DNA of 64,000 nucleotides from a virus. The notes below the pieces were generated by a model, which saw nothing but the letters and a program-made list of their open reading frames with translations, searched no databases and was not told where the DNA came from. Both the position numbers and the translations under genes were made by a program. Below, piece by piece: positions 5,994 to 54,325 of the stretch (the stretch's first letter is position 1; each line of letters starts with the position of its first letter). The stretch covers positions 3,963 to 67,962 of the IMG/VR virus record IMGVR_UViG_3300005844_000002, one strand, 5' to 3'.

Positions 5994-6073
5994 TTTTTAT
6001 TGATTAGAGCTATCACGAGGATTATTGCGGCGATCCCCATCGCTATTGCTATGGCTGGAAAAACGTAGATCAT
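5990..6073 (-). CDS. 27-aa single-TM peptide (not in the ORF track)
   Basis: MIYVFPAIAIAMGIAAIILVIALINKK, ATGA overlaps at both ends. Confidence 0.6.
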   Translation of the reverse strand: MIYVFPAIAIAMGIAAIILVIALINKK

Positions 6074-6246
6074 GGCCGAACGATAAAAAGTGCTGGAATT
6101 ACCATGCTTAAAACTGCCAGTGCAATAGTAGACCATTTAACGCGCCCTTTGTCGCAGTAGTCCCAAAAGCAACCGCAAGAGAAAAATCCCAACACAAAAA
6201 ATATAGCGCACCGTCCCAAAAACTGAAAGTTAGTTAGACAGATCAT
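6070..6246 (-). CDS. 58-aa two-TM membrane protein (not in the ORF track)
   Basis: MICLTNFQFLGRCAIFFVLGFF...IALAVLSMVIPALFIVRP; ATGA overlaps at both ends. Confidence 0.6.
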   Translation of the reverse strand: MICLTNFQFLGRCAIFFVLGFFSCGCFWDYCDKGRVKWSTIALAVLSMVIPALFIVRP

Positions 6247-8374: not shown

Positions 8375-8586
8375 GGTTGCTGTGGTAGTTTTGGCAATCG
8401 ATAGGTTCTTGGTGTGCATGTTACCCTGAGCCGAGTTTGCTCGTCGCCCAAATCGACTAGGCCAGCCTGGTCGAAAAGAACGTTTTCCACGCTCGATTTG
8501 AACGCATCCCAATTGGTATCCTCTCCCTTTCGTTCAGCAATTGCGTAGGCTGCTCTCAATAGCATATTAGATTCGTTGGGTTTCAT
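8371..8586 (-). CDS. Hypothetical protein
   Basis: LLRAAYAIAERKGEDTNW motif; coupled. Confidence 0.7.
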   Translation of the reverse strand: MKPNESNMLLRAAYAIAERKGEDTNWDAFKSSVENVLFDQAGLVDLGDEQTRLRVTCTPRTYRLPKLPQQP

Positions 8587-8846
8587 ATTGCAGTTAGTGT
8601 TTCTTCAACTCTTATGGGTTTAAAATACCAGTGCTTTGAATGCTTTTTTGATGCCTCGCGTTTCTCTTTGCACCAAACAGCGCATTCTTTTCTGGTGCGA
8701 AAAAGCATGGCGCGCTGAGGCTCTCCCAAGTATACTCTTGGCCTTGAGGTCGTATGCCACGCCTCATATGGAACAAATCCCTTTTCACGACCAACATGAA
8801 AGTGGGCAGCCCAAAGTATTGTGCGGTGGAATATTTGTGGTTTCAC
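8583..8846 (-). CDS. Hypothetical protein
   Basis: LFRTRKEC motif; start uncertain, near the stop of the upstream gene. Confidence 0.5.
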   Translation of the reverse strand: MKPQIFHRTILWAAHFHVGREKGFVPYEAWHTTSRPRVYLGEPQRAMLFRTRKECAVWCKEKREASKKHSKHWYFKPIRVEETLTAI

Positions 8847-9109
8847 GCATCCCCCTTCGGCTGGGCCGCTGCGGCGGGCTGCGGTCGTTTCATGTCTCCA
8901 GGGCAAAAACACTCGTAGTCTTCCTGCGTCCAGTGTTTAGCCGCATCGTCACACTCAGGGTGGTATTTCATGCAATTCAAGTCTCCGTAGCTTACCCCGG
9001 TACGCGTTCCATATATTGAGCCAATCTGGATATCTTCGTTGCAGTAAAAGCACACGTGCTTCTTGCGAGCGACAACTCGGTCTTTGCTTGATAGAAATAC
9101 CCAGCTCAT
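8843..9109 (-). CDS. Small Zn-finger protein
   Basis: ARKKHVCFYC...I..G..Y...HPEC. Confidence 0.75.
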   Translation of the reverse strand: MSWVFLSSKDRVVARKKHVCFYCNEDIQIGSIYGTRTGVSYGDLNCMKYHPECDDAAKHWTQEDYECFCPGDMKRPQPAAAAQPKGDA

Positions 9110-9696
9110 CCCTGTCCTTCATTTGGTTTTGCGGCGGGCTGCTTCAGTTGAGCCTCCGCCATTTGCATACCCACCCAATGAGAAACCATACGAAGATCCA
9201 TTGTTTTGCCCGCGCTAAGCAGCATTCCCATGGTTTCCGCGTCGAGTTCGCTTTGATCTCGCAACCATCCAATCGCGCCATGCTCGTCAGGCTCACAGTA
9301 TTCGAGCGAATCCAGGTCGAGCCCTCGATAGCTTTCGGGTTCTTCCGCGATGGTTTCCTTCAGAGATTTTACGAACTCCTCGAATGAAAAATCGTAGCAA
9401 TCGCGCCCGCGTCCTTTTTCTGAGGCCTCGCACTTTCCCGAAAAATAGCCGAGTTCGGTCCGGGCGATAAACTCAATTGATGCTTTGCCGCTCCATTGAT
9501 AAACTGCCGCTCCGAGGTCGCCGTAAACGAAGAGTGTTCCGCCGTGGATAATGTAGCGAATGGCATAGCACCCCGTTTTTGGCGCTTTCCACTCAATCAA
9601 GGTTAGGCCGTTTTCGCAGGTCTTTACCGTGGCTACGTGATCCTTAAACCAGCGCGTTCGTATTTCTAGAAATTGATCTGCTCTTGGGTGATTCAT
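9106..9696 (-). CDS. Conserved phage hypothetical protein
   Basis: FKDH, VYGDLGAAVY, YFSGKCEAS motifs; start MNHPR at 9696. Confidence 0.75.
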   Translation of the reverse strand: MNHPRADQFLEIRTRWFKDHVATVKTCENGLTLIEWKAPKTGCYAIRYIIHGGTLFVYGDLGAAVYQWSGKASIEFIARTELGYFSGKCEASEKGRGRDCYDFSFEEFVKSLKETIAEEPESYRGLDLDSLEYCEPDEHGAIGWLRDQSELDAETMGMLLSAGKTMDLRMVSHWVGMQMAEAQLKQPAAKPNEGQG

Positions 9697-9890
9697 GGTT
9701 GTCCCTCGTTTGGTTTTTCTGTCTCGTCCCACTGATCGTGGTAAAGCGCCTCGTGCAGCCGGTCGTAAACCTGGTCTCGTGTGAGTCGTGTGAGCGGACT
9801 CTTACCTTCCCAACTTCCGTGTAAATCCCGCATCAGGCTTTCAATCGCGGCGGTTAGGCGCTCGCACTTAGATTTGTAGTCTTCGCTCAT
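9693..9890 (-). CDS. Hypothetical protein
   Basis: GAGGAGG SD upstream. Confidence 0.65.
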   Translation of the reverse strand: MSEDYKSKCERLTAAIESLMRDLHGSWEGKSPLTRLTRDQVYDRLHEALYHDQWDETEKPNEGQP

Positions 9891-10028
9891 GTTTTTAATC
9901 CTCCTCTATTGGATAAACTTTGACGTATGCCGCGCCGTTGTCCCGAACGATCTCCTTGCCGATGCGTAGTGCCTGCTCCTCTGAGTCGGCTTCGATCTCC
10001 CAAGTGACGTTAATGTGTATTTCGTATT

Positions 10029-10535
10029 TCACGGATTTGCCTCCGGTTTTGCGGTGTCGCCTGCGAGCGCTGCCTCGATTGCTTTTAATGCGGGTGACTC
10101 ATACAGCGTGCGCGCAAAGTTTGCTGTGTTTCCAATCGCGCCAAACCATTCGGATTCTTTTTCTTGGTTTGACTCCTCGAAATAATCGAAGCTAGCAGTT
10201 GCGATCCGGGCCAACTCTTCACCAATATTCGTAATCGCATCTCGCGCCTGCGCAGCTTGCAGGTGTTCGGCTCGGGCACGCGCTTCATCTAACTGACCCG
10301 CTAATCCATCGGCTTCGTCTGAACGCACGGAAATCGCATTTTGAAGCGACTCGATTTCTTTCTCGGCTTTCTGCTTAGCCTTAACTACGTCTCTTAGAAT
10401 GCATGCGTCTTCATGGGTTAGCGCCTTATGCTCAGCCAATGCTTGCCGGAGCGCTTCGATTTCGGCGCGAGCTTTCGCATATCGATCGTTGCATTCGTCG
10501 CACGAGATTTCACCGCATGTTGGTTCGTCGCTCAT
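10029..10535 (-). CDS. Coiled-coil protein
   Basis: CxxC followed by a heptad pattern. Confidence 0.65.
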   Translation of the reverse strand: MSDEPTCGEISCDECNDRYAKARAEIEALRQALAEHKALTHEDACILRDVVKAKQKAEKEIESLQNAISVRSDEADGLAGQLDEARARAEHLQAAQARDAITNIGEELARIATASFDYFEESNQEKESEWFGAIGNTANFARTLYESPALKAIEAALAGDTAKPEANP

Positions 10536-10780
10536 GTTTCCTTCGATTCGCAAACGCAGTTAACCGGGATAATGCAATCAGGGGACGGATCACCTGGGCT
10601 TGGGTCGCCTGGTGGCTCTGGCCACTCGCATGGCCAGCTTCCAAGCGGACGAATTGCTTTACTTGGTTTATGATTGGCGAGCGGGTCAAAGATTGATGCG
10701 GCGCGAGTCATGTTGCAGCACAGGAACAACGTCGATAGGACGGCGAAGCAAAAGCGTTTGCTGTTTTTTAATGTTTTCAT
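10532..10780 (-). CDS. Putative secreted Cys/Pro-rich peptide
   Basis: Basic-hydrophobic signal; PGDPS repeat; several Cys; ATGA-coupled. Confidence 0.55.
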   Translation of the reverse strand: MKTLKNSKRFCFAVLSTLFLCCNMTRAASIFDPLANHKPSKAIRPLGSWPCEWPEPPGDPSPGDPSPDCIIPVNCVCESKET

Positions 10781-11373
10781 GATTGGAATCCTATTTTAGC
10801 TACAGCCTCATGGGATGAGGCTCTCAGTTTCTTGAGGAAATCGATGTCGTCTTTGGTCTTGGGAAGAACGTTTCCATACCGAAGGCAGACTATGCGCGGT
10901 TGAACGATTAAGAATGTCACTTGATCACTATGCTTGAACTGCGACTCGTCTGAATGATCAAAATCATCCTCTGGCGCGTACGGTTTATCTAGATCGGCTT
11001 CGACCTCTTCAATCGTGGTGTACGTGCCGTGAACTCCTGATGTAGAAAACAAACAAAAGTTCATTTCGTTTGCCTCTCCGTTTGGGAAAAAGGATCTTAG
11101 TGCTGCCATTGATTTCAGATCGCTCGCACGGGATTTACCTGAGTGGTGATTAACGTAAAACGTGTTGTAGTGCGCCCCTTCTTTTTGGTGCACCGATTTC
11201 CAGTCTTCGGATGACGCTGGCTCAAACATTGGTCCTGAAGCACTCATTTGTTTTGAAATTGATTTATTTTGCCTGGTTTTCCTTCCCGCTAGGCCAGCCC
11301 TACCGCTTGCGATGTAGGCTCGCATTTCGGTGGGGCCTATGGGCGGGAATAGATTATGCGGAGAACCGTCCAT
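10777..11373 (-). CDS. Hypothetical protein
   Basis: 198 aa; FCLFSTSGVHG motif; start uncertain. Confidence 0.7.
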   Translation of the reverse strand: MDGSPHNLFPPIGPTEMRAYIASGRAGLAGRKTRQNKSISKQMSASGPMFEPASSEDWKSVHQKEGAHYNTFYVNHHSGKSRASDLKSMAALRSFFPNGEANEMNFCLFSTSGVHGTYTTIEEVEADLDKPYAPEDDFDHSDESQFKHSDQVTFLIVQPRIVCLRYGNVLPKTKDDIDFLKKLRASSHEAVAKIGFQS

Positions 11374-11743
11374 CTCCGTGCTCCTGCGCCAGACGGTCTA
11401 CATCTAACTCGCTAAGCGCTTGATGATCCTGCTCGGCAAACACTTCGTCAAGGTATTGCTTCTCCTCTTCCGTGCGTTCTACGGTCTTAGGAATGCCAGC
11501 GAACACGCTTTCAATTCCTTTGATCATTGCCGCGTTTAGGCGCGTGCGTATGTCGATGTCGCAGGACATGCAGCGTGGCCGTTGCATGTAAAGGTCTCGA
11601 ACGCCTTGGCTAGAGCCTTCTGGCGCTCCGGCGTATTCTCCGTGCGTCTCGCAGTCGCAAAAAAAGCACGGGAAGCATTCTCCGGTTCCCGCGTTGTGCG
11701 CCGCTAGCTCGTCCCAGTCTGGTTGTTTGACTTGTTTGTTCAT
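11354..11743 (-). CDS. Cys-rich hypothetical protein
   Basis: CxxC motifs; downstream of a TTGACT promoter. Confidence 0.6.
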   Translation of the reverse strand: MNKQVKQPDWDELAAHNAGTGECFPCFFCDCETHGEYAGAPEGSSQGVRDLYMQRPRCMSCDIDIRTRLNAAMIKGIESVFAGIPKTVERTEEEKQYLDEVFAEQDHQALSELDVDRLAQEHGDGRFSA

Positions 11744-11771
11744 ATAGTTGAGTTTCGTTTACCTATGAGAA

Positions 11772-11802
11772 AGTCTATGGTTTAATTGCGCAATCAAGTC
11801 AA
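11772..11802 (-). promoter_or_regulatory. Promoter with palindromic operator ATTGCGCAAT
   Basis: Minus strand TTGACTTGATTGCGCAATTAAACCATAGACT; the same box recurs at 54368. Confidence 0.55.
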
Positions 11803-12027
11803 TCACAAAATCCTAATTGCGTCTAGGCTTTGTCCTCCAGAAAAGCCGTGAACCGTCACCATTGCTGAATGTCCTCCCATAACCCAGGCGGGTGTTGTTG
11901 TTTTTGTTGGAGATCCATCTCTAAGCGGATTGATTAGCGAATATCGCACCACCTCAGTTCCGACTGGAAATCGTGCGTTGAAGTCATCGACCATCGCCTG
12001 TAGTTTTTGAATGTTTGGTTTTTTCAT
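11803..12027 (-). CDS. Conserved phage hypothetical protein
   Basis: FNARFPVGTEV...T.TPAWVMGGHSAMV motif. Confidence 0.7.
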   Translation of the reverse strand: MKKPNIQKLQAMVDDFNARFPVGTEVVRYSLINPLRDGSPTKTTTPAWVMGGHSAMVTVHGFSGGQSLDAIRIL

Positions 12028-12221
12028 AATGATTTCAGCCACGCCCGCTTTTTCTTGAGCGGAATTTTGCTGATCTTGAATTTCTGGTTTCTGACCGGAA
12101 GGGCGAGCCCGAGCTGCTTGCAAGTCTCGCGATCTAGCAACAACTCAAGACCGTTTCCAATCGGAACGGCCCTGAGCTTGTCTTCATGCGGTTCAAAACG
12201 ATCTTTCATAACTTTTCCCAT
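12024..12221 (-). CDS. Hypothetical protein
   Basis: In operon. Confidence 0.5.
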   Translation of the reverse strand: MGKVMKDRFEPHEDKLRAVPIGNGLELLLDRETCKQLGLALPVRNQKFKISKIPLKKKRAWLKSL

Positions 12222-12490
12222 TTGCTGCTTTCGACGACGCGGACACCTTTCATCTTGCCTGAATTTACCCCTTTGTCTCCAACCAACAAAAAGCAGTTTT
12301 CTCCATTTACTCCGAATTCACCCTCACAAAGATGGTGACCAAAAAGAAATCCATCAAACTTTCTAACCTGCTTATACATGTAAACCTTCTCGCGCCTTTT
12401 GGCAGCAACGAAATGAAATACCTTTAGAACATCCCATTCTTCAATGAGAATCCCGCGTTCATCGGTTAAAGGCGCCTTATCTTCGCTCAT
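12206..12490 (-). CDS. Hypothetical protein
   Basis: DVLKVFHF...YMYKQ motif. Confidence 0.7.
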   Translation of the reverse strand: MSEDKAPLTDERGILIEEWDVLKVFHFVAAKRREKVYMYKQVRKFDGFLFGHHLCEGEFGVNGENCFLLVGDKGVNSGKMKGVRVVESSKWEKL

Positions 12491-12494
12491 TTAA

Positions 12495-12746
12495 TTATTT
12501 TCGTTCTATGGACATTATGCAATATCCTTCTGGCACACCAAATACGCCGCCGTGAAGAATGTAGGAGACTGTGAATAGACAAAACCGTCCTGTTGGTGAA
12601 CATCCTCCAATAAACGGAACTACTTCCATTAAAAGAAGCTCGTCACCAAGCTTGAAATCGCGGTCGTTCTTGCGGAACTCGAATGTCTTTTTGCCGTAAA
12701 CAACGTCGTGATATACGCTGTCCCAGGTTTTTAGCTTGTGTGTCAC
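12495..12746 (-). CDS. ASCH/DUF3850 domain protein
   Basis: HKLKTW...GKKTFEFRKNDRDFKLGD. Confidence 0.85.
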   Translation of the reverse strand: MTHKLKTWDSVYHDVVYGKKTFEFRKNDRDFKLGDELLLMEVVPFIGGCSPTGRFCLFTVSYILHGGVFGVPEGYCIMSIERK

Positions 12747-12867
12747 TTCAGGTCACGCTCCAGTTCTGAGACGATAGCGCGAGACTCCCGCGCAACGTTG
12801 TACGTATATAGAAAAATCGCGGCCCCAAAGCACAGCGACATAGCAATAAGGACAAGGTTCAGGCGTT

Positions 12868-13128
12868 TCATATGGACGCTTGTTTGATGTAAACGGAGGC
12901 AAAGTAGTTGCGCGGTAAAAGCGTTGCTTTACCCGAAAGTCCAATTATCCTGGCTTCATTTAATTGAAGGCCGATGATTAACGACTTGATTGCGTTGTGA
13001 ACGCCGCCGATTCGCTTGTACTGCTCAGAGCTGCAAAGCGTGCGGTTATTTCCTGCGAGAACAGCAAACCAAAATTGCTTAGTGGTTTTGCTGCGACGAA
13101 TCCTGAAGCTAACGTATTTGTGTGACAT
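12868..13128 (-). CDS. YegP/DUF1508-like protein
   Basis: WFAVLAGNNRTLCSSEQY...AIKSL. Confidence 0.7.
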   Translation of the reverse strand: MSHKYVSFRIRRSKTTKQFWFAVLAGNNRTLCSSEQYKRIGGVHNAIKSLIIGLQLNEARIIGLSGKATLLPRNYFASVYIKQASI

Positions 13129-13135
13129 TTTGTTT

Positions 13136-13357
13136 TTATTTGTGACTGAAAAAGAGAACGGCCAGCGTTAGGGCACAGCCCCAAGCTAGGCCAAAGACAA
13201 ACGCGGCAAAGAAAGGCCACAGCGGCACAGGGGTCCCAAGCTCGTCTTGGTTTTCGCGGCCGAGGTTTTCTTGTGAATCGAAGCGAGAGTTGTCCCTCTC
13301 GGAAAGCTGCAACCGAGCGAGAGTATCGTACTCGGTGGTTTCAAATCGGTTTTTCAT
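13136..13357 (-). CDS. Membrane protein
   Basis: C-terminal TM helix. Confidence 0.6.
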   Translation of the reverse strand: MKNRFETTEYDTLARLQLSERDNSRFDSQENLGRENQDELGTPVPLWPFFAAFVFGLAWGCALTLAVLFFSHK

Positions 13358-13716
13358 GTGGTTATTTCTTTATTTGGCCGGGTTTCGACCATCAATTGAC
13401 CTTCAAAAAATATAACAGAGTAGATGTAGTCGGCTTGCCACTCATCCATAGTTTTAGGAGAAATGACGTAGATTTCTCCTAATGGAAACTTATCCTTGAA
13501 ATGTGCTAGGCATTGCGCCGCGAAATCGCCCATGCCGTTAGCAACCTTAGGTAAGTCTAGGTGGGAATCCTTAATGCCGTTGACGAGCTTAAAACCGGAG
13601 CAAAAGCGCCTCAGTTCTTTGCCGTGGCATTCCGGATACCCATCCGACTGCCGATAGAATGAGAGCAGGAGGTTTCTGTCTTCGTCGTATATCCTAGTTT
13701 TTGCAGGTGTGCCCAT
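13354..13716 (-). CDS. Conserved phage protein (YRxxDGYP family)
   Basis: YRQSDGYPECHG, ANGMGDFAAQ; start moved to 13716. Confidence 0.8.
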   Translation of the reverse strand: MGTPAKTRIYDEDRNLLLSFYRQSDGYPECHGKELRRFCSGFKLVNGIKDSHLDLPKVANGMGDFAAQCLAHFKDKFPLGEIYVISPKTMDEWQADYIYSVIFFEGQLMVETRPNKEITT

Positions 13717-13721
13717 AAAGG

Positions 13722-13880
13722 TTATGGGGTTCCTAGAAAGTTTAGGGCCCATCGAACGCCAAAGGACAGAGAATACGCAATAGCTACGCCTAGGACGCAC
13801 AAAGTCAGCATTCCTAGACCGAGATAGGCTAGGTCTGTCCAGAAGGCTAGGAAGCGCTTTAAACGGGGTTCTGTGGGCAT
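13722..13880 (-). CDS. 52-aa membrane protein (not in the ORF track)
   Basis: MPTEPRLKRFLAFWTDLAYLGLGMLTLCVLGVAIAYSLSFGVRWALNFLGTP. Confidence 0.55.
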   Translation of the reverse strand: MPTEPRLKRFLAFWTDLAYLGLGMLTLCVLGVAIAYSLSFGVRWALNFLGTP

Positions 13881-14057
13881 TGGGGATCCTGGTTATGTTT
13901 TGATGGCGCGGCCCGATGTTTTCTTATGGTTTTCCAGCAGGTTTGAGAACCGGCCTAAACCTATTTTTAGGTCTAGCTTGCGGGCCAAACGCGGCCACCG
14001 GCTTTTTCTCAATCTGCTCAACTGCATTAAACAAACGGACAGCTAACTCTGACACCT

Positions 14058-14090
14058 CAAAACCCCCTTGCCAGCTAAGGCTAAGGGGGC
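14058..14090 (-). terminator. Intrinsic terminator
   Basis: Minus strand CCCCCTTAGCC...GGCAAGGGGG-TTTT. Confidence 0.6.
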
Positions 14091-14324
14091 AACTGACCTA
14101 TCATTTAGAGTAATTCATTCATCGCGCTAGCTTCCTTCGATTAATTCGCGCCTAACAATCGACAGTTTTGGTTTTCGTTTATCGCATATTTTTATTTAGA
14201 GTAGAATATCTCCACCTAAAAGCCTCGCGTCTCCGTAGAGATAGCGAGGCTAGGGAATGGTTTGAGATTAGACTCTATGCCTCTGCGTGGATTAGCTTGC
14301 AGTCGCTTGCGGCTAGCCAATGAG

Positions 14325-14651
14325 CTAGGGTTTCGCTGCCGATGCCTTTGAGATTGCGTCTACTGCTTTGCATAAAGCTAACTGTGGCCCCCTATAGTAT
14401 TCTCCATGTTTTTCAACTAGTCTATCAAGCCATGCCATACATTCGTTAAGAGCGTCTAGGAGCTCCGGTGCTGCTGCAATTAGGCGTGCGTTAGCTTCTT
14501 GAATCTCTTCTTCTCCTTCGCTTAGAGTGTCCGAGTACGTACAGCAAACTGTACGATCTAGGGCAACGATGTGAATCTCTTTAAGCCTTGGTTTTGAATG
14601 TAAAACCGTGGCATACTCGCGCCATGGGCCTTTTGTGTGCTGTGTGCTCAT
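14325..14651 (-). CDS. Conserved phage early protein
   Basis: HTKGPW...ANARLIAAAPELLDAL. Confidence 0.85.
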   Translation of the reverse strand: MSTQHTKGPWREYATVLHSKPRLKEIHIVALDRTVCCTYSDTLSEGEEEIQEANARLIAAAPELLDALNECMAWLDRLVEKHGEYYRGPQLALCKAVDAISKASAAKP

Positions 14652-14881
14652 GACTTTGCAGCCTCCCTGCTGGTGATAAAATAGCGCCGTTCCTCTTTAT
14701 GAAGGCTCAGATTTTCGCCGGGTTTTATGTTGGGCCTGCCAACCAAAACTTCCTTCCGCTTGAGCTTTTCGCGAATATATTCGTTGTAGTCTCCTTCTCT
14801 CATATTCGGGCAATAGCCGCTGTAATAGTTGTAAACGGCGCTTAGACTCTCAAAGTGATTCGTGCCAGTGATAGTCTTCAT
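14648..14881 (-). CDS. Hypothetical early protein
   Basis: ATGA-coupled. Confidence 0.65.
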   Translation of the reverse strand: MKTITGTNHFESLSAVYNYYSGYCPNMREGDYNEYIREKLKRKEVLVGRPNIKPGENLSLHKEERRYFITSREAAKS

Positions 14882-15198
14882 TTGGTTGCAGCCTCCTCAA
14901 CGATTTGCCTCGCCGCTTCCTTCATGATGCACGTCCCGGCGCTTAATGAATATAACCGTTTTCCGTCTCCGTTTTCATCAATGGCGAATAGCGAAGGCGT
15001 ATTTATTCGGTCCCATTCCTCCAGCGGTATATCATTAAAATGAGGGTCACGCGAAGATAGCAGCCTAGATCCAAATCGCGTTTCTACTAAGCGCTTGATG
15101 TAAGGCGTAACGAATTGCGCCCAGTATTCGCGGTGCGTGCAAACCTTGTCCAAATATTCTGATCTAGTCCATTTAACTGTTTTCGTGTCCGTGTTCAT
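14878..15198 (-). CDS. Conserved phage early protein
   Basis: THREYWAQFV...DPHFNDIPLEEWD. Confidence 0.75.
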   Translation of the reverse strand: MNTDTKTVKWTRSEYLDKVCTHREYWAQFVTPYIKRLVETRFGSRLLSSRDPHFNDIPLEEWDRINTPSLFAIDENGDGKRLYSLSAGTCIMKEAARQIVEEAATK

Positions 15199-15288
15199 TG
15201 TCTGTTTATCCTGATTTTTGTTGAGCTCTGCCCGTGATTAGGCATTACGGAAACACTTAGGCTATCCCAAGTGTTTCGAAGTGCGTTA

Positions 15289-15702
15289 TCAGGAAGCGTA
15301 AATTTTCCCATCATCACCTAGGTAGAGATCGGTTGACCCGTATACCTTTGAAGCGGCTGAAAGGCGTTTACCTAGGTCACTTAAGCCCCTATCCAAAAAC
15401 CCGACACCATGGCCATTTTTCGTTAACCAGAAGTCATGTCCGGCGCATTCGATTTCTGAGAAATTGCCCGTAGGGGAATACTCGGAACAAAAGGCGCTTA
15501 AATCGTCCGAATTCGCCTGCATGAAATCGCGACACTCGCGAGCCATCGAAAGGAGCGACGAAAACGCGATATCGTGTCGGGTGTAGTTAGCGTCGAATGG
15601 TTCGCCCCCGCTCTCGGTAGAATTATCGTAAGACGACCAAAGCGCGCAGGTGAGAAAGCCAATGAAAAACTCGCGGAACTCAGATTGCGTTTTCGTTTTC
15701 AT
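15289..15702 (-). CDS. Conserved phage early protein
   Basis: CALWSS...AGHDFWLTKNGHGVGF. Confidence 0.8.
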   Translation of the reverse strand: MKTKTQSEFREFFIGFLTCALWSSYDNSTESGGEPFDANYTRHDIAFSSLLSMARECRDFMQANSDDLSAFCSEYSPTGNFSEIECAGHDFWLTKNGHGVGFLDRGLSDLGKRLSAASKVYGSTDLYLGDDGKIYAS

Positions 15703-15989
15703 AGCGCAAACACTCCCTTCTGCGCGTCACGTAATGCTAACAACCGAGCCTTATCCGTGCTGAGCAAATCCAGCAGTTCAAGCGCTTCCGCCTTGCAAAC
15801 GTGCTCGGAATTCTTCAGCTTTTCCCCAGCGAAAACTAGATCGATATACGTTAGGCCGTAGTCCTTAACCATTGCTTTCGCGGCTATAGTAAAGCCTGAC
15901 TCTAAGAGAGTAACAGCGTCAATCGCGGCAAGCTTTGTGCCGTCAGAGATGAGGCGTTCTAGTTGAGAGTTAGAGTAGAGAGCGTTCAT
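15699..15989 (-). CDS. Hypothetical early protein
   Basis: Coupled to the downstream gene. Confidence 0.6.
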   Translation of the reverse strand: MNALYSNSQLERLISDGTKLAAIDAVTLLESGFTIAAKAMVKDYGLTYIDLVFAGEKLKNSEHVCKAEALELLDLLSTDKARLLALRDAQKGVFAL

Positions 15990-16034
15990 GAGTTTGTTTA
16001 TCGGTTGTACTGTCGGTTGCTTTAGAGAAAAGAA

Positions 16035-16232
16035 TCACCAATTGGCATCAGCCATACCGAAAGAAGAGTTGAACTCTAAGTTTCGAACGTTGTCCGCGCT
16101 CTTACTTGACTTGTGGAATGCTTTCCTATCACGTGGATAGTAAGCGATTTCGTCGCCTTTCTTGATTTCCTTGCCCGTTTCGGGGCAAACACTGTTGAAG
16201 CGGGCAGTTGTGAAATAAGGGTCGTTTTTCAT
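16035..16232 (-). CDS. Small early protein
   Basis: ARFNSVCPETGKEIKKGD motif. Confidence 0.7.
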   Translation of the reverse strand: MKNDPYFTTARFNSVCPETGKEIKKGDEIAYYPRDRKAFHKSSKSADNVRNLEFNSSFGMADANW

Positions 16233-16417
16233 GTCAGTCGATTTAAAGGGTCAGACTTTGTTAGCCTTGCTCCCTAGCTGAGCGTTTTAGCTTCATGACT
16301 AGGGAGCGAATCGACTAACTAACCTGACGCTCCTAATATCGGGTATTCCTAAGCATAAGTGAAGATAAATCTTAGTGTTCTTTGCTTATTAGTTGTAAGC
16401 GCTTTTAAGACAGTATC

Positions 16418-16939
16418 TTAAGCTGCTAAGTTTTTGCTTAGCTCTTCTCGGATCCACCTGCGCCAAGTCCGGTTTTTGTTAATGTTTATCACCGTAGAGA
16501 GCCCAACGTTAAACAATTGAGCGATTGTTTTCTTGTTGAGGTCAAGCATGCATAGGGCTTTGATAAGAATCGCAGTATCAACGGTTAGTTTTGTGTTATG
16601 GTTGCGTTCTCCCCATCTGCTTAATCCAGTCTTTACGGCATGAAGTAGGTTTTCCGACGGAGTACACCATTCTAGGTTGTCCGGTCGGTTGTCGTGTTTG
16701 ATCCCGTTCTTATGGTTAACCTGTTCTTTCCGTAGCGGATTCTTATGGAACGCGGCGCAAACAACGCGATGCACTGGTCTGTCCATGTAAGCGGTTATTC
16801 CTAGCCTCAACCTAATGGTGACATATCCGTCATGAGTGAACTGTTGTGGGATTGGTCCAAAGATCTCTTCGTGCTGAATAGTCCCGAGAGTGGACACTAG
16901 ATAGCCTTTGATCCTTGATCTTTTCCAATGCTCTTCCAT
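16418..16939 (-). CDS. HNH endonuclease with a C-terminal HTH
   Basis: VHRVVCAAF, QVNHKNGIKHDNRPDNLEW, IAQLFNVGLSTV. Confidence 0.85.
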   Translation of the reverse strand: MEEHWKRSRIKGYLVSTLGTIQHEEIFGPIPQQFTHDGYVTIRLRLGITAYMDRPVHRVVCAAFHKNPLRKEQVNHKNGIKHDNRPDNLEWCTPSENLLHAVKTGLSRWGERNHNTKLTVDTAILIKALCMLDLNKKTIAQLFNVGLSTVININKNRTWRRWIREELSKNLAA

Positions 16940-17626
16940 TGGCCGATAATAGCAGACCCAAAAATTTCGGGTAGCTCAATCATTACTTCATGGATCGTTT
17001 TGGATTTAAGTAGTTATCCCGTTAACTTATTACGATTTAAGATTGGTCTTAGTCCCGATCCGTTAGCCTTCCGTTTCGGCGCAGTAACGCCAAGGACAAC
17101 GCACGTAAGGACAGCTAAAGGATTGTCTAGTCGTTTCCCGAGTGCATCTAGTTCCTGTAAAGTACTTTGACATCAAACTATTCAACGTCGAAATACCCGC
17201 CGTTTTAGCTCGGGAATGTCAGGAGGATGTCAGTAGGCATACCGGATCCGCGCCCAACTCGCGGCCAATCGTTAGCCCTACGCTAGGTAACTGGCTGCTA
17301 GTCTACAGCATTCCCCTTGCTGCTCTGACCCCGTAGGGCCTGACGCAGTCAGCCAGCACATCCCCCTTATAGGCTAAACCTATCCCTTAGCCTTTTCCCC
17401 TGTCCCTCGCGTCAGCGAGCCCACTCGGTATTCCCTCCCCCGGCTTGGCACCTTCCAAACTTCCCGTCAACCCGCCCGGACTGTTTCCATGTTAAAACGT
17501 TAAGAGACAACCGGTTAAGAAAAGAACAATAGCCGGATCCAAGCTGAAACGTACCCATACCGAACCGGCCTTGTTGAGCACGCTAAGTCTTGCGTAACAG
17601 TCACGTGCGTACCTGCTTACGAATCG

Positions 17627-47816: not shown

Positions 47817-48917
47817 ATGCCTACGACAAGTGGCTTCGGTGTTCAGGTTATGCCTTCGATCCAGTTCGCAGATGGAGCGCAATTGGCTGGGCGCGGACCG
47901 GGCGAAGCGATTGCTGGGTTTAACTCTGGCATTGGACTGGTAAACGCTATCCAGAATACGCGGCAGAAAGCTATTCTTGCGCCGATTGAGCAAGAAGCTG
48001 CGAGAGCACGCTTGGCGCAGATCCAGGCCGAAACTGAGTTGGCTCAGGCCCAAGCACCATACCGTGCCGCATTGGCTAGGATTGAAACGGCCAAAGCGAG
48101 CCAGCCATTCAGGACAAAGCAGGGCGAATCCATTGTTCAGGTTCCTAGGTTGGATGCGAACGGACAACCTACGGGTCAATTTGACCAAGTGATTCAGGAA
48201 AGCGGCGTTCAGTACGATCCGGTTACTGGCACGAACAGCCCATATACAGCAAACATGAAGCCGCTGGTTACGGCGGAAACTGCGGCGCTAAATAATTCCC
48301 TTATAGGTTCTCGACAATCTACTGCGGAATATCAGCAAGACCAAGCTGCTGCGAGAGCCGAGGCTAACAGAATTGCTGCGCTTAACGCTCAGACCAATCA
48401 GGATCGGGCTAAGGCTCAGGCTGACTTGTATGCTCAGAGAATCAACCATTACAAGGCCCTTGAGGCGCAAGGTAAGGTTCAGATCTTTCAGACAGTAGAC
48501 GCCAATGGCAATTTGGTTCTAAATCCCGTAGACGTTAAAACGCGGCAGGCACTCCCTCCTATCAGTCTGAACGCTAAACCGAATCGTTCGGTTGATCCAC
48601 TTGCGTCGATGATGTCAGGAGATGGTAAGGTGGGTGCTGTTAAGCCGAAGAGTGAGAGCATGGCAACAGCAGCCACGAATTGGGTTAAGAATAAAATCAA
48701 TTCATTCACTTCGCCGTCTCCCGCTGCGGATCAACCAGTGACGACGCTTCCGGTTATACCGGCTGGTCCCGTTGGACAAGCATCAGCTAATCCTGCCCCC
48801 CCAGATATTCCAGATGACAGCGAGATTGATAATCTCCTCGGGTTTAATCCGACTCCAGTAGCTCAGCCTAACGCAGCTCCCGCGTCGCCCTACAAAATTC
48901 GTGTGGTTAAACCATAA
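47817..48917 (+). CDS. Internal virion/ejection protein
   Basis: A/Q/P-rich, second of three. Confidence 0.65.
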   Translation: MPTTSGFGVQVMPSIQFADGAQLAGRGPGEAIAGFNSGIGLVNAIQNTRQKAILAPIEQEAARARLAQIQAETELAQAQAPYRAALARIETAKASQPFRTKQGESIVQVPRLDANGQPTGQFDQVIQESGVQYDPVTGTNSPYTANMKPLVTAETAALNNSLIGSRQSTAEYQQDQAAARAEANRIAALNAQTNQDRAKAQADLYAQRINHYKALEAQGKVQIFQTVDANGNLVLNPVDVKTRQALPPISLNAKPNRSVDPLASMMSGDGKVGAVKPKSESMATAATNWVKNKINSFTSPSPAADQPVTTLPVIPAGPVGQASANPAPPDIPDDSEIDNLLGFNPTPVAQPNAAPASPYKIRVVKP

Positions 48918-51900
48918 TGCCTACTTATGAGGTAACAGGCCCCTCCGGTACGGTCATTGAAATGGAGGGAGCGAATCCGCCTAGCCAAGCGGATATTGAT
49001 GCCGCGTTTGCGAGTATCCAAAAAACGGCAGTGCCTGCTACCCAAGCGTCGTCTGGTGGCTCGGATCTCGCACGGATGGCGAGCGCGGCCTATAGCGCAC
49101 CAGCTCCCAACATCGGAGCGAATCTAAACCTTCGTGATGCGCGTGCGGCAGGAGGGCAGACCTTAAGCTTATCGCAGGCTAGCCCGATTGCTCGTGAACG
49201 TGCGTATGATGTTCTCGGCGGACTTACCGGCCAAGGAGGATCTGAAGCCGCGCAGTTCACCAAGGAATTCAGGGCAGCTCCAGTTGGTCAAGCATTTCAA
49301 GACCGAGATCTAGGCGCTATCGTTAAGACTGGCGACAATACCTTTAGGCGTGTTGGCACGGCTCCGCAGCGCGATCAAACGGCAGGGGATATTTCTACCC
49401 AACTTTTAAATCAGGTATCCAACGCAGATATCGGTGGCGCTTTTAGTACGCTTCAACCCGGATTTAACCGAGCTGGTAATCTGGCTGTCCGTAGCGGTGG
49501 ATTGGTTGCGTCAACGCTTGCTCCAGAGCTTAGACTCCCAGGGCTTATTCTTGGATCTACGGGTGAACTAGCGGGCCAAGCAATCGACGCTGAAAGCGCG
49601 GGGCAAGATCCACTCAATTGGCGTAACTACAGTTTACCAGGTATAGTTGGTGCTGGGCTAGTGAGTACAGTGGGATCTGGCGCTACCGCTCCTACGCTTA
49701 GGCAGGCAGCAGCGCAAGGCATCCTTGAGGGCGGCGCGCTTGAGGCTCCATATCAACTATCGAGTTTAACGGCTGGCCCAACGCAGGCTGAGATTGATCC
49801 TAATACGGGACTACCTATTGGCGCAGCTAAATACGAAGGAAACGCTACGGATCTACTGCCTACGCTAGCAATGGGCCTAGGCGCTCGTGGAGGTCACGCT
49901 ATTGCGAACGCTATTTCTGACCTAAGGAATCCTCGTTTGCCGCAAATTGAGTCTGCTCCAGCTAGCTACACGGACCAAGGAATAATCAATGCTCAGGCGG
50001 CGCGGCAAGCTGAAGGAAACGCGGCGCTCGCTGACGCATTTCAAGGGGAGCAACGAGCGCTACAGGGCATAGATACAGGCTATCAGAATGCCGTAGAGCT
50101 ACAGGCTCCAGTCCAAGCGCAGAACGTTTTGGATGCCGCCGAAGCACAAGGAGCAGTTAACGCACAAAGACAGGGTGCGATTCTGGATAACCCGGCTACG
50201 CCGCAAAGTGCTCAAGCACTTCGAGAGCAATTAGCACTTGAGCAGCAAGCGGCTGATCGTGCGGTGCAGCAGCAGAATATTTTGAGACAGGCGTCTGGCC
50301 TAGATTTACAGGAAGCAATGCGGGCTAATCAGATTCAGCCTAGCACGCTTACACCGATTGAAACCTCCCCTCAAGAACTGGCAGCTAGGCAGATTAGAGA
50401 ACTGGACGCTCAACGAGCTACCGCGCTTCCGTTAAACGCTGAGCTTTCATCTCAGGCCAATAGGATGAACGAGCAATACGGGCGGGCGCTTCCTATTGCT
50501 CTTCCGACAATTGCTGGCGTAGGTGTTGGTGGAGCTATTGGATCAACGCAAGGCGATACACCACAAGAGCGATTTCAAAATACGGTTCTTGGTGCTGTTG
50601 GCGGTGGTCTGCTTGGCGCGGGCGGAACGGCTGCTGCACGGCTAGCTCAGCCCGAGCTTAACGCGGGCGAACAGGTCTTGGCCAAGGCGGCTAAACCACC
50701 GAGTCTAGCCAACATTGTAGCTGAAACTGCTTCTCACGTTGAAGGAAGTCCTGCTAGTACGCAGGCCGCAGCTAATGCGCTCACTCAGACTCCAAAGCTG
50801 CCTACGATCGCTGAGGCTACCGCGCAGCAATCGGCATTGGTTCAAGGTCTTAAGGAGATGGGGTATAGCGATAACGACATTGTCGATATAAAACGTAACA
50901 ACACACCTGAAAAAATCAGTGAAACCATTAATCGTAACCCTAGTAACACTAGGGTCGCAATATTGGACGAAGAGGGGAATGTTGTTGGTCAAAGCGAAGA
51001 CCTATTCCAAAAAATTAAGGCATATAAAAGCGCGTATCCGTCCGAGATGACTGGAGAAGAATTTAATCGTCTACGCCAACAAGATCAAATTGGAGGAAAT
51101 CAAAATGCCATTCAAAAGCAAAGCGCAACAAGCAAAGTGTTACGTCCTGAAAGCACAGGGCAAAGCGGGAAATTGGAACTGCCTAGCGTGGAGCCACGAA
51201 ACGCCCAATCAGAAATCGTTGCCGGAACACAAGCCCTCGACCAAGCAATCCAAAACATCGAACAAGCACCGCCGCTAAAGCCGCTGCCCGAAGACACAGA
51301 GTTTCTATATGAACAGAAGTATGACACCAAGTCAGGGCCAAAGTCCGAGCGGTATTACCAGGTTGACCGAACTCCCGACAATCCAAGAGGAAGAACAGTT
51401 GATGAAGCAACCCTGCGCTCGGAAGGGTACGATACTTCTGGACTCCCAGGACCCGAAGAGAATTCAGCAAATTCTGGATCTTCTCAATTCTCGGGTGCTA
51501 TTGGAGCTGGCGGAACTCAAGGCGCAGTCACAGGAAAAGCGTTAGGCATACTTGCGGGCGGCGCTACCGGCGGCACGTTGGGATTCCTTGGGTCCAACGA
51601 AAAAGACGATAAGCTAGTTCACACTGTAGCTGGTGCGATCATTGGCGGAATCGGCGCTGCTGCTTTGATGAAAGGAGCAGACGCCATAACCAGGGCCAAG
51701 GTTGGGCAAGAGCTAGATGTTCTTCGCCGCAACATCATCAATGAGAATATCCCGCGTTTAAGGAACGCGTCGGAAGAATCTGCTAATGCTGTGTTTCGTT
51801 ACGCCAATGCGCCACAGGCTGCCGAGGACGTAGCGAAAGACATGCAGGCTAGAGTGCTTGGAAGTCAGTACAAAAGCCCGGAGTTTTCAAAGAAGCTCGG

Positions 51901-54325
51901 TTCTGTTTGGGTAGAAGAACAGCAGAGGGGGCTAAAAAATAGTTTGGAAGAGGCCGCAAACAACGCGTCCACTCCAGAAGAAGCTGCGCAGCTACGCAAG
52001 CAGGCATCTAAGGTGGTAAGCACAATTGGACGTGAAAGCGTATTCAAGAATGAGGCTGAATTTCAGGCCGCGTTAAATGATCCACAGATCAAACAGGCCA
52101 ACGAGATTTTTAAGCAGACTGTTCAGCCCGCAGCCCAGGCCCGTCATTTGCTCACGGGCGGATTTGATTCCAGGGAAGAGTACGAAGCCGCGATTCAGGA
52201 AGCGCTAAAAAACGGAGACCCACTTCCAACCGTAAAGCTTGCTGCCCCAGGACCAAATACTGGAGTTTTCATAAACCAGCAGCCAATATTTGAAGAGGCC
52301 AAAGAAGTTACTGGAGGATCATCGCCAAAGGGCAACCTCCGAAATCCGCTTCAGCGCAGGTCTGCATTTTCTAAGGTTCGTAAGGGCACCGCAGAAGAGT
52401 ACAACATTGACGCCAATAGCCTGATTGAGCGCATGGTCAAAGGTAACTATGAGGATGCTGCTAAGCGGAACATGTATACACAGCTTGAAAAAGACGGGCT
52501 GGGCGTAGCGCTTCCTGCCGGAGAAAAACCAACAGACCTAGATACCGGTCGTTACGGAGGTCCTCCAATTCCAATCGAGCAACGCGGAAGCGGCAGCGCC
52601 AATACTTTTTTTTGGCCGGATCAATCTATTGAAGGAGAGTTGAGAAAAGCTCTGAACACAGATAGTCCGTTACGTAAAAAAGGATTTCTTGCTAGTGTCA
52701 GAGGAGCAATGAACCTGATTCAGATGCGCGGCCTAACCGATCCGGTTGTGCACGGGGCCAACATTATTGCTGGTATCGCTTCTGCTCCTGGTGGAGAAAA
52801 CTTCATTACTCAAGTGTTTAGGGGCATGCCGATAGCATCCTCGTTCGATGCTCTTGGGAAAGTGGGGATGAAGGTTGTTGACCTTATCAAAGACACTCCA
52901 GAAATTAGGTCGCAAATCGCTAAACTTTCCGAAATCGGAAGTATCAGACCGGTCTACGAAGGAGATACGAATCGTATCAGTCGATTCCTCCACACGGTAG
53001 ACAAAGCCGGTAGGTTGGCCTTAGATGATCTCTATCAGACCTTGGTTGATCGAGGACTAGTTCAAGAGTCAGAAGCTGGTAGGCGCGATTTTGCCAATAG
53101 AATTGGTCAGTACAATAGCCGTTTGCTTGGTCAATATGACGGTATCCTAAAAGAGTCTGGATTATCGCCGTTCCTGGTTGCTGGTAAAAACTTCAATTCT
53201 ATTGGCCTTAAACAAGTCGGAGCACTTGGCGGGCTATCCACTGGAGGAGTGAAGGCTGCATCCAAAGCAGCAAGCCTGCAGCTTAGGGCAGCACAGACTA
53301 TTGGGGCCTACAGTACACTTGTCGCCATACCAGCGGTGATTAACTATCTGGCCTGGGGAGACCCAGGTGGACCAGATGGAACCCCGCTTGGTAAGATTGC
53401 GCTAAATGAAAGTGACGATGGAAAGCGTTACTACTTCGACCCGGCACAGCTCACACTGCTTCGGCGTGGCTTGCGCAGCACGGGCCTGCAAGCGGTCATA
53501 ACCGGTGCACAAACTGGCGACAATCTAAACAACGTAGGTGGTCAAGCATGGCGAGACGTAAGAAACGCGCTCATTCACCCCTACGCTGGTCCAGTCCCAA
53601 CCGCAGCAGTCACCGCTTTAACGGGATATAACCCAACGTTCCATCGCGTAGCGGAGAACGTAACTCCTATTGGTCAAAGCCCAGACACGCTAAGGCAGCT
53701 TGGAGCTAATGCGAGTGCCGCGTTTAGAAACCTAAATCCAGTTCAAGGGGCCTTTGCAGAATCCGCTACGCCTAAAGCCGGAGAGGAGGCGTTTGGTCCA
53801 GGAGAATCAATTCTACCTGGAGTCGGAAACATGCTGATGGATCTTGCTGGCGCTGGTGGTCTACGTAGGGCGACTCCGCTGAGCGAAGACACAGGCGCGC
53901 TCCACGAGGCTCAGGACGAACGCTTCGAAGCCAACAGAAACCGCAAGAAGCTGATCGAGTCAATTATCGCAGGAAGCACAGACGCGAACGGACAATTGGA
54001 TCTGTCTCAAGTTAGGGCCCACATTCAAACGCCAGAGATCCAGCAGGCCATCCGAGAGAACCCACTGCAAGCCCAGCTTCTCAAGAACGAGATCCGCACC
54101 GCAGTTAAACAGAAGCTCCAAGGCCAACAGAAGTCGGACGTTGAAAGTAAGTTCAATGTCGCCGAAGGAGAACGTGCTCAGTTTTACCTTAACCGAATCT
54201 CGAATCTTTCGCCGGAAGAGGCGCAACAATACCTGCGAGATCAGAAGTCAAAAGGATATTTGACTAGGAAGGTCCTGCAACAAATGAATTATTTGAGGTC
54301 AAGACAGCCCGCTGGTGTTCCGTGA
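48917..54325 (+). CDS. Large ejection protein (1802 aa)
   Basis: MPTYEVTGPSG...EG..PP N-terminus, Gly-zipper TM segments, helical C-terminus. Confidence 0.75.
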   Translation: MPTYEVTGPSGTVIEMEGANPPSQADIDAAFASIQKTAVPATQASSGGSDLARMASAAYSAPAPNIGANLNLRDARAAGGQTLSLSQASPIARERAYDVLGGLTGQGGSEAAQFTKEFRAAPVGQAFQDRDLGAIVKTGDNTFRRVGTAPQRDQTAGDISTQLLNQVSNADIGGAFSTLQPGFNRAGNLAVRSGGLVASTLAPELRLPGLILGSTGELAGQAIDAESAGQDPLNWRNYSLPGIVGAGLVSTVGSGATAPTLRQAAAQGILEGGALEAPYQLSSLTAGPTQAEIDPNTGLPIGAAKYEGNATDLLPTLAMGLGARGGHAIANAISDLRNPRLPQIESAPASYTDQGIINAQAARQAEGNAALADAFQGEQRALQGIDTGYQNAVELQAPVQAQNVLDAAEAQGAVNAQRQGAILDNPATPQSAQALREQLALEQQAADRAVQQQNILRQASGLDLQEAMRANQIQPSTLTPIETSPQELAARQIRELDAQRATALPLNAELSSQANRMNEQYGRALPIALPTIAGVGVGGAIGSTQGDTPQERFQNTVLGAVGGGLLGAGGTAAARLAQPELNAGEQVLAKAAKPPSLANIVAETASHVEGSPASTQAAANALTQTPKLPTIAEATAQQSALVQGLKEMGYSDNDIVDIKRNNTPEKISETINRNPSNTRVAILDEEGNVVGQSEDLFQKIKAYKSAYPSEMTGEEFNRLRQQDQIGGNQNAIQKQSATSKVLRPESTGQSGKLELPSVEPRNAQSEIVAGTQALDQAIQNIEQAPPLKPLPEDTEFLYEQKYDTKSGPKSERYYQVDRTPDNPRGRTVDEATLRSEGYDTSGLPGPEENSANSGSSQFSGAIGAGGTQGAVTGKALGILAGGATGGTLGFLGSNEKDDKLVHTVAGAIIGGIGAAALMKGADAITRAKVGQELDVLRRNIINENIPRLRNASEESANAVFRYANAPQAAEDVAKDMQARVLGSQYKSPEFSKKLGSVWVEEQQRGLKNSLEEAANNASTPEEAAQLRKQASKVVSTIGRESVFKNEAEFQAALNDPQIKQANEIFKQTVQPAAQARHLLTGGFDSREEYEAAIQEALKNGDPLPTVKLAAPGPNTGVFINQQPIFEEAKEVTGGSSPKGNLRNPLQRRSAFSKVRKGTAEEYNIDANSLIERMVKGNYEDAAKRNMYTQLEKDGLGVALPAGEKPTDLDTGRYGGPPIPIEQRGSGSANTFFWPDQSIEGELRKALNTDSPLRKKGFLASVRGAMNLIQMRGLTDPVVHGANIIAGIASAPGGENFITQVFRGMPIASSFDALGKVGMKVVDLIKDTPEIRSQIAKLSEIGSIRPVYEGDTNRISRFLHTVDKAGRLALDDLYQTLVDRGLVQESEAGRRDFANRIGQYNSRLLGQYDGILKESGLSPFLVAGKNFNSIGLKQVGALGGLSTGGVKAASKAASLQLRAAQTIGAYSTLVAIPAVINYLAWGDPGGPDGTPLGKIALNESDDGKRYYFDPAQLTLLRRGLRSTGLQAVITGAQTGDNLNNVGGQAWRDVRNALIHPYAGPVPTAAVTALTGYNPTFHRVAENVTPIGQSPDTLRQLGANASAAFRNLNPVQGAFAESATPKAGEEAFGPGESILPGVGNMLMDLAGAGGLRRATPLSEDTGALHEAQDERFEANRNRKKLIESIIAGSTDANGQLDLSQVRAHIQTPEIQQAIRENPLQAQLLKNEIRTAVKQKLQGQQKSDVESKFNVAEGERAQFYLNRISNLSPEEAQQYLRDQKSKGYLTRKVLQQMNYLRSRQPAGVP
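51105..51278 (+). CDS. Nested 57-aa basic protein of MPFKSKAQ type in the +1 frame of the ejection gene
   Basis: GGAGG at 51092-51096, 8 nt before ATG; MPFKSKAQQ...W..ETPNQKSLPEH. Confidence 0.7.
   Translation: MPFKSKAQQAKCYVLKAQGKAGNWNCLAWSHETPNQKSLPEHKPSTKQSKTSNKHRR

Follow-up and report, generated by a model that had tools for sequence, protein, structure and literature searches.

Comparative evidence for a small MPFKSK-type gene nested in another reading frame of a giant phage gene

Can a 57-codon reading frame that lies wholly within the gene for an 1802-residue protein be a gene in its own right? This question is raised by a 64,000-nucleotide stretch of phage DNA – bases 3963-67962 of the 67,962-bp IMG/VR virus record IMGVR_UViG_3300005844_000002, which has direct terminal repeats and is rated complete. 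We refer to the whole of this stretch as the window. An original prediction, made from the letters of the window without database searches, held that a giant gene for an ejection protein contains a second gene in its +1 frame, preceded by a perfect GGAGG and missed by gene callers. The two genes and the putative start signal are as follows.

51105-51278, + strand: putative nested gene, with ATG at 51105, 57 codons and a TAA at 51276-51278, recognised by homology, profile and alignment matches.
48917-54325, + strand: host gene, an open reading frame (ORF) of 1802 residues that belongs to the virion/packaging module and has hydrophobic stretches rich in glycine.
51092-51096, + strand: GGAGG, a Shine-Dalgarno-like pentamer 8 nucleotides before ATG 51105, present also in the related loci L086 and L088.

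These coordinates agree with those originally predicted. The ATG lies in the +1 frame of the 1802-residue ORF ((51105-48917) mod 3 = 1), the 57-residue product is a basic protein of the MPFKSKAQ type with the N-terminus MPFKSKAQQAKCY, and the host frame over the nested ORF specifies a polar linker (...IGGNQNAIQKQSATSKVL..., IGGNQNAIQKQSATSKVLRPESTGQSGK...). From comparisons across phage, metagenome and prokaryotic genome collections, we conclude that 51105-51278 is very probably a real, selected and independently initiated gene carried on a swappable segment. The case for a nested gene rests on sequence comparison because the length of the ORF and the GGAGG are both at chance level.

The original prediction took MPFKS.AQ...W..ETP...LP as the pattern of a recurrent small phage protein that usually stands alone, and homology searches bear this out. 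A word-indexed search of 5.8 billion called clustered proteins (31-100 residues) found only three relatives of the window protein, with E values of 1.3e-9, 3.0e-9 and 9.7e-8. A profile built from 71 members and searched against 1.84 billion cluster representatives matched 3023 of them at E<=1e-3 and 382 at E<=1e-10, and the match begins at residue 1 in 139 of the 150 matches listed. Family members begin with MPFKSK at residue 1, continue with a core of ~40 residues, predicted to form two helices, that ends in W..ET(P)N.K.LP, and usually have a tail rich in lysine and arginine. In our family alignment (A2, in the numbering of the window protein), M1, P2, F3, K4 and T33 are invariant and S5, K6, Q8, W29, L39 and P40 are nearly so. 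The window protein carries the motif, with M-P-F-K-S-K from residue 1 followed by W..(E/H)T and then LP. It is 91% identical to its counterpart at L088, 71% to that at L089 and 69% to that at L090, and represents a distinct subfamily with a longer loop, whose closest relatives are free-standing forms. Judged by these matches, the family is large, uncurated and viral, and consists of predicted small basic proteins. Its two regions map onto the nested gene as follows.

51105-51224, + strand: conserved core (codons 1-40), comprising MPFKSKAQ, a predicted helix at residues 6-18, a loop, a predicted helix at residues 26-32 and ETP..KSLP.
51225-51278, + strand: basic tail (codons 41-57), not conserved, with a stop that falls in the conserved flank of the host gene (within host codons for L-K).

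In an AlphaFold2 model computed from 71 sequences, the two short predicted helices (6-18 and 26-32) precede a basic tail in extended form. The predicted local distance difference test score of the model averages 80, with values of 83-89 over residues 1-40 and 58-69 over the tail.

Nested relatives are also found among cultured phages. A tblastn search of cultured-phage records returned 69 (68 Flavobacterium Elemovirus phages and one uncultured podovirus; best E 1e-4), which match nested residues 1-40 at 51-55% identity and always under a giant coding sequence (CDS) annotated as 'structural protein'; a second search, with a scaffold-type copy as query, returned the identical set of 69 records. 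In the two records examined, the match is an ATG-started ORF of 42-43 codons, displaced by +1 from the giant CDS ((6001-2340) mod 3 = 1 and (6001-3405) mod 3 = 1). The Elemovirus copy at L001 occupies 6001-6129 and would specify 42 residues. The deposited Elemovirus annotation contains the giant gene only, and the nested ORF is not called.

Relatives of the window protein were found in both states, nested and free-standing; the counts that follow come from the best matches to the queries, include some contigs held in two collections, and are not frequencies. Among the best 80 of 95 confirmed loci in a pattern scan of IMG/VR, 56 are nested in the same register with the ATG and the open frame kept, in addition to L001 and L002. 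Their hosts have at least 600 residues at 18 loci and 300-450 residues at 33, and are cut by the contig end at 5. A further 22 loci are free-standing, 14 as small genes and 8 as the N-terminus of proteins of more than 100 residues, and two are ambiguous, with hosts of 174 and 198 residues. A metagenome scan with a window-type query gave 64 free, 13 nested and 3 ambiguous copies among its 80 best loci. Scanning one genome per prokaryotic species gave 71 loci, 66 of them free (64 small and 2 long) and 5 of them nested candidates, two of which are doubtful, being located in DNA of 66% guanine plus cytosine. By this survey most members are predicted either to be genes that stand alone or to form the N-terminal module of a longer protein, and a subset is nested.

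The register of nested copies is always the same, with a host codon beginning 1 nucleotide before the ATG. In the frame equivalent to that of the host, 69 of 81 unique free copies contain a stop, versus none of 63 nested copies; of those 63, 59 are interrupted by stops in the third frame. The read-through frame is therefore held open specifically where a host gene passes.

The genes that contain these copies appear to be mutually unrelated, and that of the window is a new, unrelated host by the same comparison. Two recurrent kinds are the giant hosts and hosts of ~390 residues, which we call scaffold-position hosts. At L008 such a ~390-residue host lies between a portal gene (phrog_6547, E 2e-148) and a gene for a virion structural protein (phrog_13704, E 6e-97); the L008 host has no family match, and the label 'scaffold' therefore refers to position only. 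In blastp comparisons among hosts, similarity between scaffold-position and giant hosts is confined to 33-107 aligned residues around the overlap, and the hosts of the window, L023 and L070 each match no other host. Further hosts occur at L094 (1347 residues), L098 (2018 residues), L191 (2358 residues) and L192 (1769 residues). A FastTree phylogeny of 140 unique N-terminal modules, which rests on 47 columns and has weak support, implies at least seven changes between the nested and free states, five of them forced by well-supported branches, and puts two free-standing forms, L090 and L093, in one group with the window and L088 (local support 95).

Which frame does selection follow where the two genes overlap? 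Among 57 nested Cys-type loci, 56 are gap-free over 33 codons and reduce to 48 unique sequences. Entropies at small-frame codon positions 1/2/3 are 0.456/0.406/0.81 across these 48, small-frame position 3 being host position 1. Translated in the small frame, these sequences have a mean pairwise amino acid identity of 74.7%; the host frame gives 55.4% and the third frame, which has stops in 47 of the 48, gives 57.6%. Single-site differences that are silent in the small frame only number 8697, versus 4171 silent in the host frame only. The counts behind these statistics are of related sequences and of pairwise comparisons rather than of independent events; every subset nevertheless points the same way, including giant hosts alone (17 unique sequences, with 80% small-frame versus 59% host-frame identity) and scaffold-position hosts alone (37 unique sequences).

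The host genes carry the corresponding imprint at their synonymous sites. In a codon alignment of 30 unique ~390-residue hosts, entropies at host positions 1/2/3 are 0.617/0.451/1.14 downstream of the overlap and 0.755/0.486/0.431 inside it, so that third positions, the most variable everywhere outside the overlap, are the least variable within (1.14 falling to 0.431 bits). This third-position constraint was measured in scaffold-position hosts; the window lineage offers one independent near-copy. By these measures, purifying selection in nested copies tracks the small frame, and the host would read through in a frame no better conserved than the stop-filled third. Homologues, a conserved ATG and open frame, small-frame periodicity and suppressed host synonymous sites all accord with the original prediction of a real nested gene missed by callers, and this comparative evidence is strong enough to make such a gene likely.

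Within the lineage of the window itself, the nested gene appears to sit on a segment that can be exchanged.

51059-51274, + strand: swappable segment of 216 nucleotides (72 codons), comprising the nested gene and a 46-nucleotide leader, with flanks conserved in L084-L087.

Four IMG/VR relatives of the 1802-residue protein were found (L084-L087, 81-90% identity), all with the flanks ...AYPSEMTGE upstream and LKPLP.DTEFLYEQKYD... downstream. L086 has the 57-codon ORF and the GGAGG, and L088 is a metagenome contig identical to L086 over the region. L084, L085 and L087 have near-identical flanks and, between them, a different segment of 74 codons in which the +1 frame is full of stops. The host frame is open in both versions of the segment, and the same TAA that ends the nested ORF occurs in the +1 frame of L085. 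We considered that the two segments might be diverged alleles and rejected the idea: their Smith-Waterman score of 28 is close to the average for shuffled sequences (27.1) and was reached in 41% of 2000 shuffles. The missing frame in the three relatives is best read as replacement of the whole module rather than decay of the frame, because the entire segment in L084, L085 and L087 is unrelated sequence. Stops in close relatives, which the original prediction had named as a sign against the gene, do occur in three of the four, but they came with a replaced segment and so record no frame decay.

A second module differs as well. At ~50840-51050 of the window (host residues ~640-715), upstream of the nested segment, the window is unlike all four relatives: L084-L087 share ~95 residues there (ISSLKDKLVSGLKKAG... 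to ...PPTKG), and the window has ~55 different residues. Because this module also differs from L084-L087, the middle of the giant host gene appears as a mosaic of independently swapped modules. Between the window and L086 there are 12 differences in 264 nucleotides, only 2 of them in the 120-nucleotide core; the core would thus be doubly constrained and the tail probably not, although with one independent comparison this is weak evidence.

Another ATG-started ORF, of 78 codons, lies at 51309-51545 (+ strand) in the same +1 frame, 31 nucleotides past the nested stop, and is open also in L085. We rejected it as a second nested gene. Its variation in L084, L085 and L087 falls mostly at host third positions (third/first-position differences of 3/1, 6/1 and 6/1), and L086 shows mixed differences (10/7/5 at third/first/second host positions). 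It looks like a chance ORF whose frame is kept open by conservation of the host gene.

How would translation of the nested gene begin? The statement of the original prediction that strong Shine-Dalgarno sequences are scarce in this genome proved accurate: only 13 of 56 long ORFs in the window have a Shine-Dalgarno-like 4-mer within 20 nucleotides of the start, and the bacterial host of the phage therefore probably relies little on Shine-Dalgarno pairing. The 60 nucleotides around ATG 51105 have a computed folding energy of -4.7 kcal/mol, versus a mean of -12.5 kcal/mol for windows taken over 3 kb of the host gene, and only 3.7% of these fold as weakly. Across 54 unique nested loci, which are related sequences and not independent, 46 start sites belong to the quartile of their own host gene with the least structure, and no start site belongs to the quartile with the most. 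Such weak folding is in keeping with internal initiation, although the ORF begins with a conserved, A-rich stretch and the two features are not independent. In seven nested loci a small-frame stop stands immediately 5' of the ATG, which at these loci rules out entry from host-frame translation upstream.

Several observations weigh against a selected gene at this particular locus. ORFs of 40-78 residues are abundant in the +1 and +2 frames of the host gene, so that the length of the nested ORF is itself at chance level. GGAGG, which the original prediction took as a mark of the gene, has 53 copies on the + strand of the window, 4 of them with an ATG 4-10 nucleotides on where ~6 would be expected by a rough estimate; the pairing is at chance level and carries no weight as evidence. 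Three of the four close IMG/VR relatives of the host gene are without the nested gene, which is therefore dispensable for host gene and phage. The two core differences between the window and L086 divide evenly, one silent in each frame, and the four in the tail are all at host third positions and all change an amino acid in the small frame. The lineage has a single independent near-copy (L086 and L088 being the same over the region), so selection on the window copy is deduced mostly from the family; the narrow base of the tree and the relatedness of the sequences behind the selection statistics, given above with those results, belong on the same side.

These observations could be taken to mean that the family is real elsewhere and that the window copy is a passenger remnant, carried into the linker by recombination and unexpressed or unselected. 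Such a remnant would account for the other segment in three of four close relatives, for tail differences that follow the host frame, for a chance-level GGAGG and ATG pair in a genome that makes little use of such motifs, and for an ORF without a stop of its own, its TAA coming from the host flank. It does not sit well with an ORF that is intact in both lineage copies and that in the window has all the invariant and near-invariant residues of alignment A2, nor with a core that holds just 2 of the 12 differences and a start in the least-structured 4% of the host mRNA. We consider it improbable.

Programmed frameshifting that joins the two frames seems still less probable, and decidedly unlikely. 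Translation would start at the internal ATG and shift by -1 near the end of the small ORF, fusing the module to the downstream part of the giant protein. Long free-standing forms provide a parallel, since they have the module at residue 1, a Lys-rich linker and a Gly-rich hydrophobic (glycine-zipper-like) C-terminus (L095, L100, L108, L114, L134, L138, L139, L040 and L045 are examples), and the window host protein has similar Gly-rich stretches ~100 residues downstream. Many nested copies also end in A-rich runs of Lys codons, and such runs can be slippery. The end of the window ORF, however, has neither an A-run nor a recognisable slippery heptamer; free small copies of 41-60 residues indicate that the module works as a separate protein, and in seven loci the stop right before the ATG excludes, for those loci, entry from host-frame translation upstream. 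One of the long forms, L045, has weak sub-threshold Pfam matches to Gly-zipper_Omp and to a holin family.

Scarcely credible is conservation of a nucleic-acid element (RNA or DNA) or of a peptide in the host frame, with the +1 ORF open as a by-product, for although the host-frame peptide (DAVQEQST.ESVL...) looks conserved across loci, its identity is no higher than that of the third frame and well below that of the small frame, variation has its three-base periodicity in the small frame, and free coding homologues mostly have the host-equivalent frame closed.

We thus favour a real nested gene, initiated on its own, and suggest how it could have arisen. The small gene would be older than the overlap, having been engulfed by the host gene or recombined into a linker there that tolerated it – the reverse of classical overprinting. 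Its initiation would be internal and independent, at ATG 51105 within an unusually unstructured stretch of mRNA, and its product may act alongside capsid-internal or injected proteins.

What such a product might do is approached here through genomic context. Near the host gene in the window, 41282-43237 matches phrog_511 'internal virion protein' (E 1.3e-5) and 55642-57432 matches the terminase large subunit (E 9e-36). We infer the 'ejection' role of the 1802-residue protein from its size, position and composition only. Searches of Pfam and PHROGs with the small protein and the host gave nothing usable (two PHROG rows, E 0.2), a PDB sequence search with the 1802-residue host found no relative, and no cultured phage matched the host gene by blastn. 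At other loci, the free copy in L043 comes directly after terminase and portal genes, and a phrog_511 'internal virion protein' gene stands 1.2 kb downstream of the free copy in L048. The L023 host (7852-17592, 3247 residues) has an InPase domain (PF18823) at residues 573-703, and its nested gene starts from residue 716, 13 residues on. In the 654-residue protein P0051 the module is fused N-terminally to DUF5661 and InPase, and the L026 host has a DUF3293 domain. Four of the ten longest members have Pfam domains (YkuD; DUF5661 with InPase; DUF4269; DUF5661) and six have none. The module is thus recurrently associated with InPase-bearing proteins, in the L023 host and P0051. Iyer et al. 2017 connect this InPase clade with phage polyvalent proteins, for which they predict packaging and injection (PMC5512222).

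We lean, with low confidence, towards a virion-associated product because the hosts belong to the head/virion module, some copies are portal-adjacent, and the InPase links point the same way. That the product is a small basic adaptor or nucleic-acid-binding protein working with capsid-internal or injected proteins is one possibility, and on present evidence a rather doubtful one. The role suggested in the original prediction, that of a hidden partner of ejection proteins, is likewise conjectural. Against any assignment of function stand the following results: neighbours are without annotation at 6 of 8 free-standing loci, the free Cys-type copy L030 lies amid small genes of 66-241 residues with no adjoining large structural genes, and the window protein has no Pfam, PHROG, PDB sequence or fold match. 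The fold search of the AlphaFold2 model against the PDB returned nothing (one row, E 8.6), that against BFVD returned only uncharacterised viral proteins (best E 2.9e-3), the family profile had no match among PDB sequences, and the protein atlas contained hypothetical viral clusters only.

Free-standing members also lie on contigs of 0.4-3.1 Mb (e.g. L177, L187, L193, L206 and L219), and the metagenome-assembled genome labels of such contigs are Acidobacteriota, Gemmatimonadales, Vicinamibacterales, Chloroflexi and Gammaproteobacteria. The family thus extends to chromosomes, where its members would be either prophage-borne or cellular genes.

As a wider proposal, offered tentatively, the MPFKSK mini-gene could be an ancient module that has repeatedly been buried in genes for capsid-internal proteins and read through in the only stop-free register ('reverse overprinting'). 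It could have been exchanged as a cassette between unrelated hosts and retained as a dedicated cargo partner – a packaging tag, adaptor or DNA-condensing peptide – whose synthesis would keep pace with that of the host protein.

Embedded phage genes are known and have been treated as rare special cases, usually young overprinted frames. The present family appears instead to be old and widespread. Its concealed copies keep to a single register and occur in no fewer than five groups of host genes that are unrelated to one another, both in many uncultured phages and in the cultured genus Elemovirus. Nested copies escape gene callers and protein databases, with three called relatives of the window protein set against thousands of free-standing profile matches. 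The presence/absence polymorphism suggests that the interior of one gene can gain or lose another without disruption of the host gene, which bears on how giant mosaic virion proteins evolve, and the Elemovirus phages offer a tractable system for a conserved, hidden protein of the virion module. The window contributes four new elements to this picture: a distinct longer-loop subfamily, an unrelated host gene, the segment polymorphism, and the InPase and portal-adjacent context. In the open-access literature, main texts without supplements, we found no paper naming the motif or the nesting.

Among named families, the nearest likeness is to DUF3008 (PF11450) and PHROG 1375, two groups of small uncharacterised proteins with a KSKAQQ-like N-terminal motif, to both of which the matches are weak. 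DUF3008 was matched by one of 71 members (the free-standing L048; E 0.03, 14.9 bits against a curated cut-off of 24), and a DUF3008-labelled viral cluster in the protein atlas (score 0.89) is only a lead. Three long free-standing forms match phrog_1375 (E 5e-5 to 5e-3). We rejected membership of either for the window protein, which matches neither. The association with InPase, carried by the L023 host and by P0051, recalls the polyvalent proteins (PMC5512222), as do hosts that are mosaic multi-module giants; unlike polyvalent proteins, the window's own host has no recognisable Pfam or PHROG domain. Neither 'overlapping' nor 'DUF3008' occurs in the main text of PMC5512222.

The arrangement resembles lambda Rz/Rz1, where a small gene lies wholly within a larger phage gene, in the +1 frame and with its own start, is missed by callers, and is elsewhere non-overlapping – features that are known here from sequence. 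The genes of two-component spanins occur in embedded, overlapped and separated architectures and have a history of missed annotation, and no spanin family is reported to mix the embedded architecture with the other two, as far as the accessible part of Kongari et al. 2018 goes (PMC6139136). In the present case, unlike the spanins, one small-protein family is both free and embedded, and in several unrelated hosts. Unlike Rz1, the nested product is without a signal peptide or lipobox, and its hosts are giant virion-module or scaffold-position genes rather than i-spanin or lysis genes. An Rz1-like o-spanin was rejected as an identity for the window protein, whose N-terminus is polar and basic with no hydrophobic signal or lipobox, and whose 1802-residue host gene stands beside virion and terminase genes.

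Classical overprinted phage genes include phiX174 E within D and B and K within A; in such pairs it is the embedded frame that is young and confined to one lineage. The locus described here is like phiX174 in that one stretch of DNA would give two proteins in different frames, with a host protein that tolerates the overlap. It is unlike classical overprinting in that the embedded gene appears to come from an old and widespread family, and it is the reading of the host that is unconstrained and apparently secondary.

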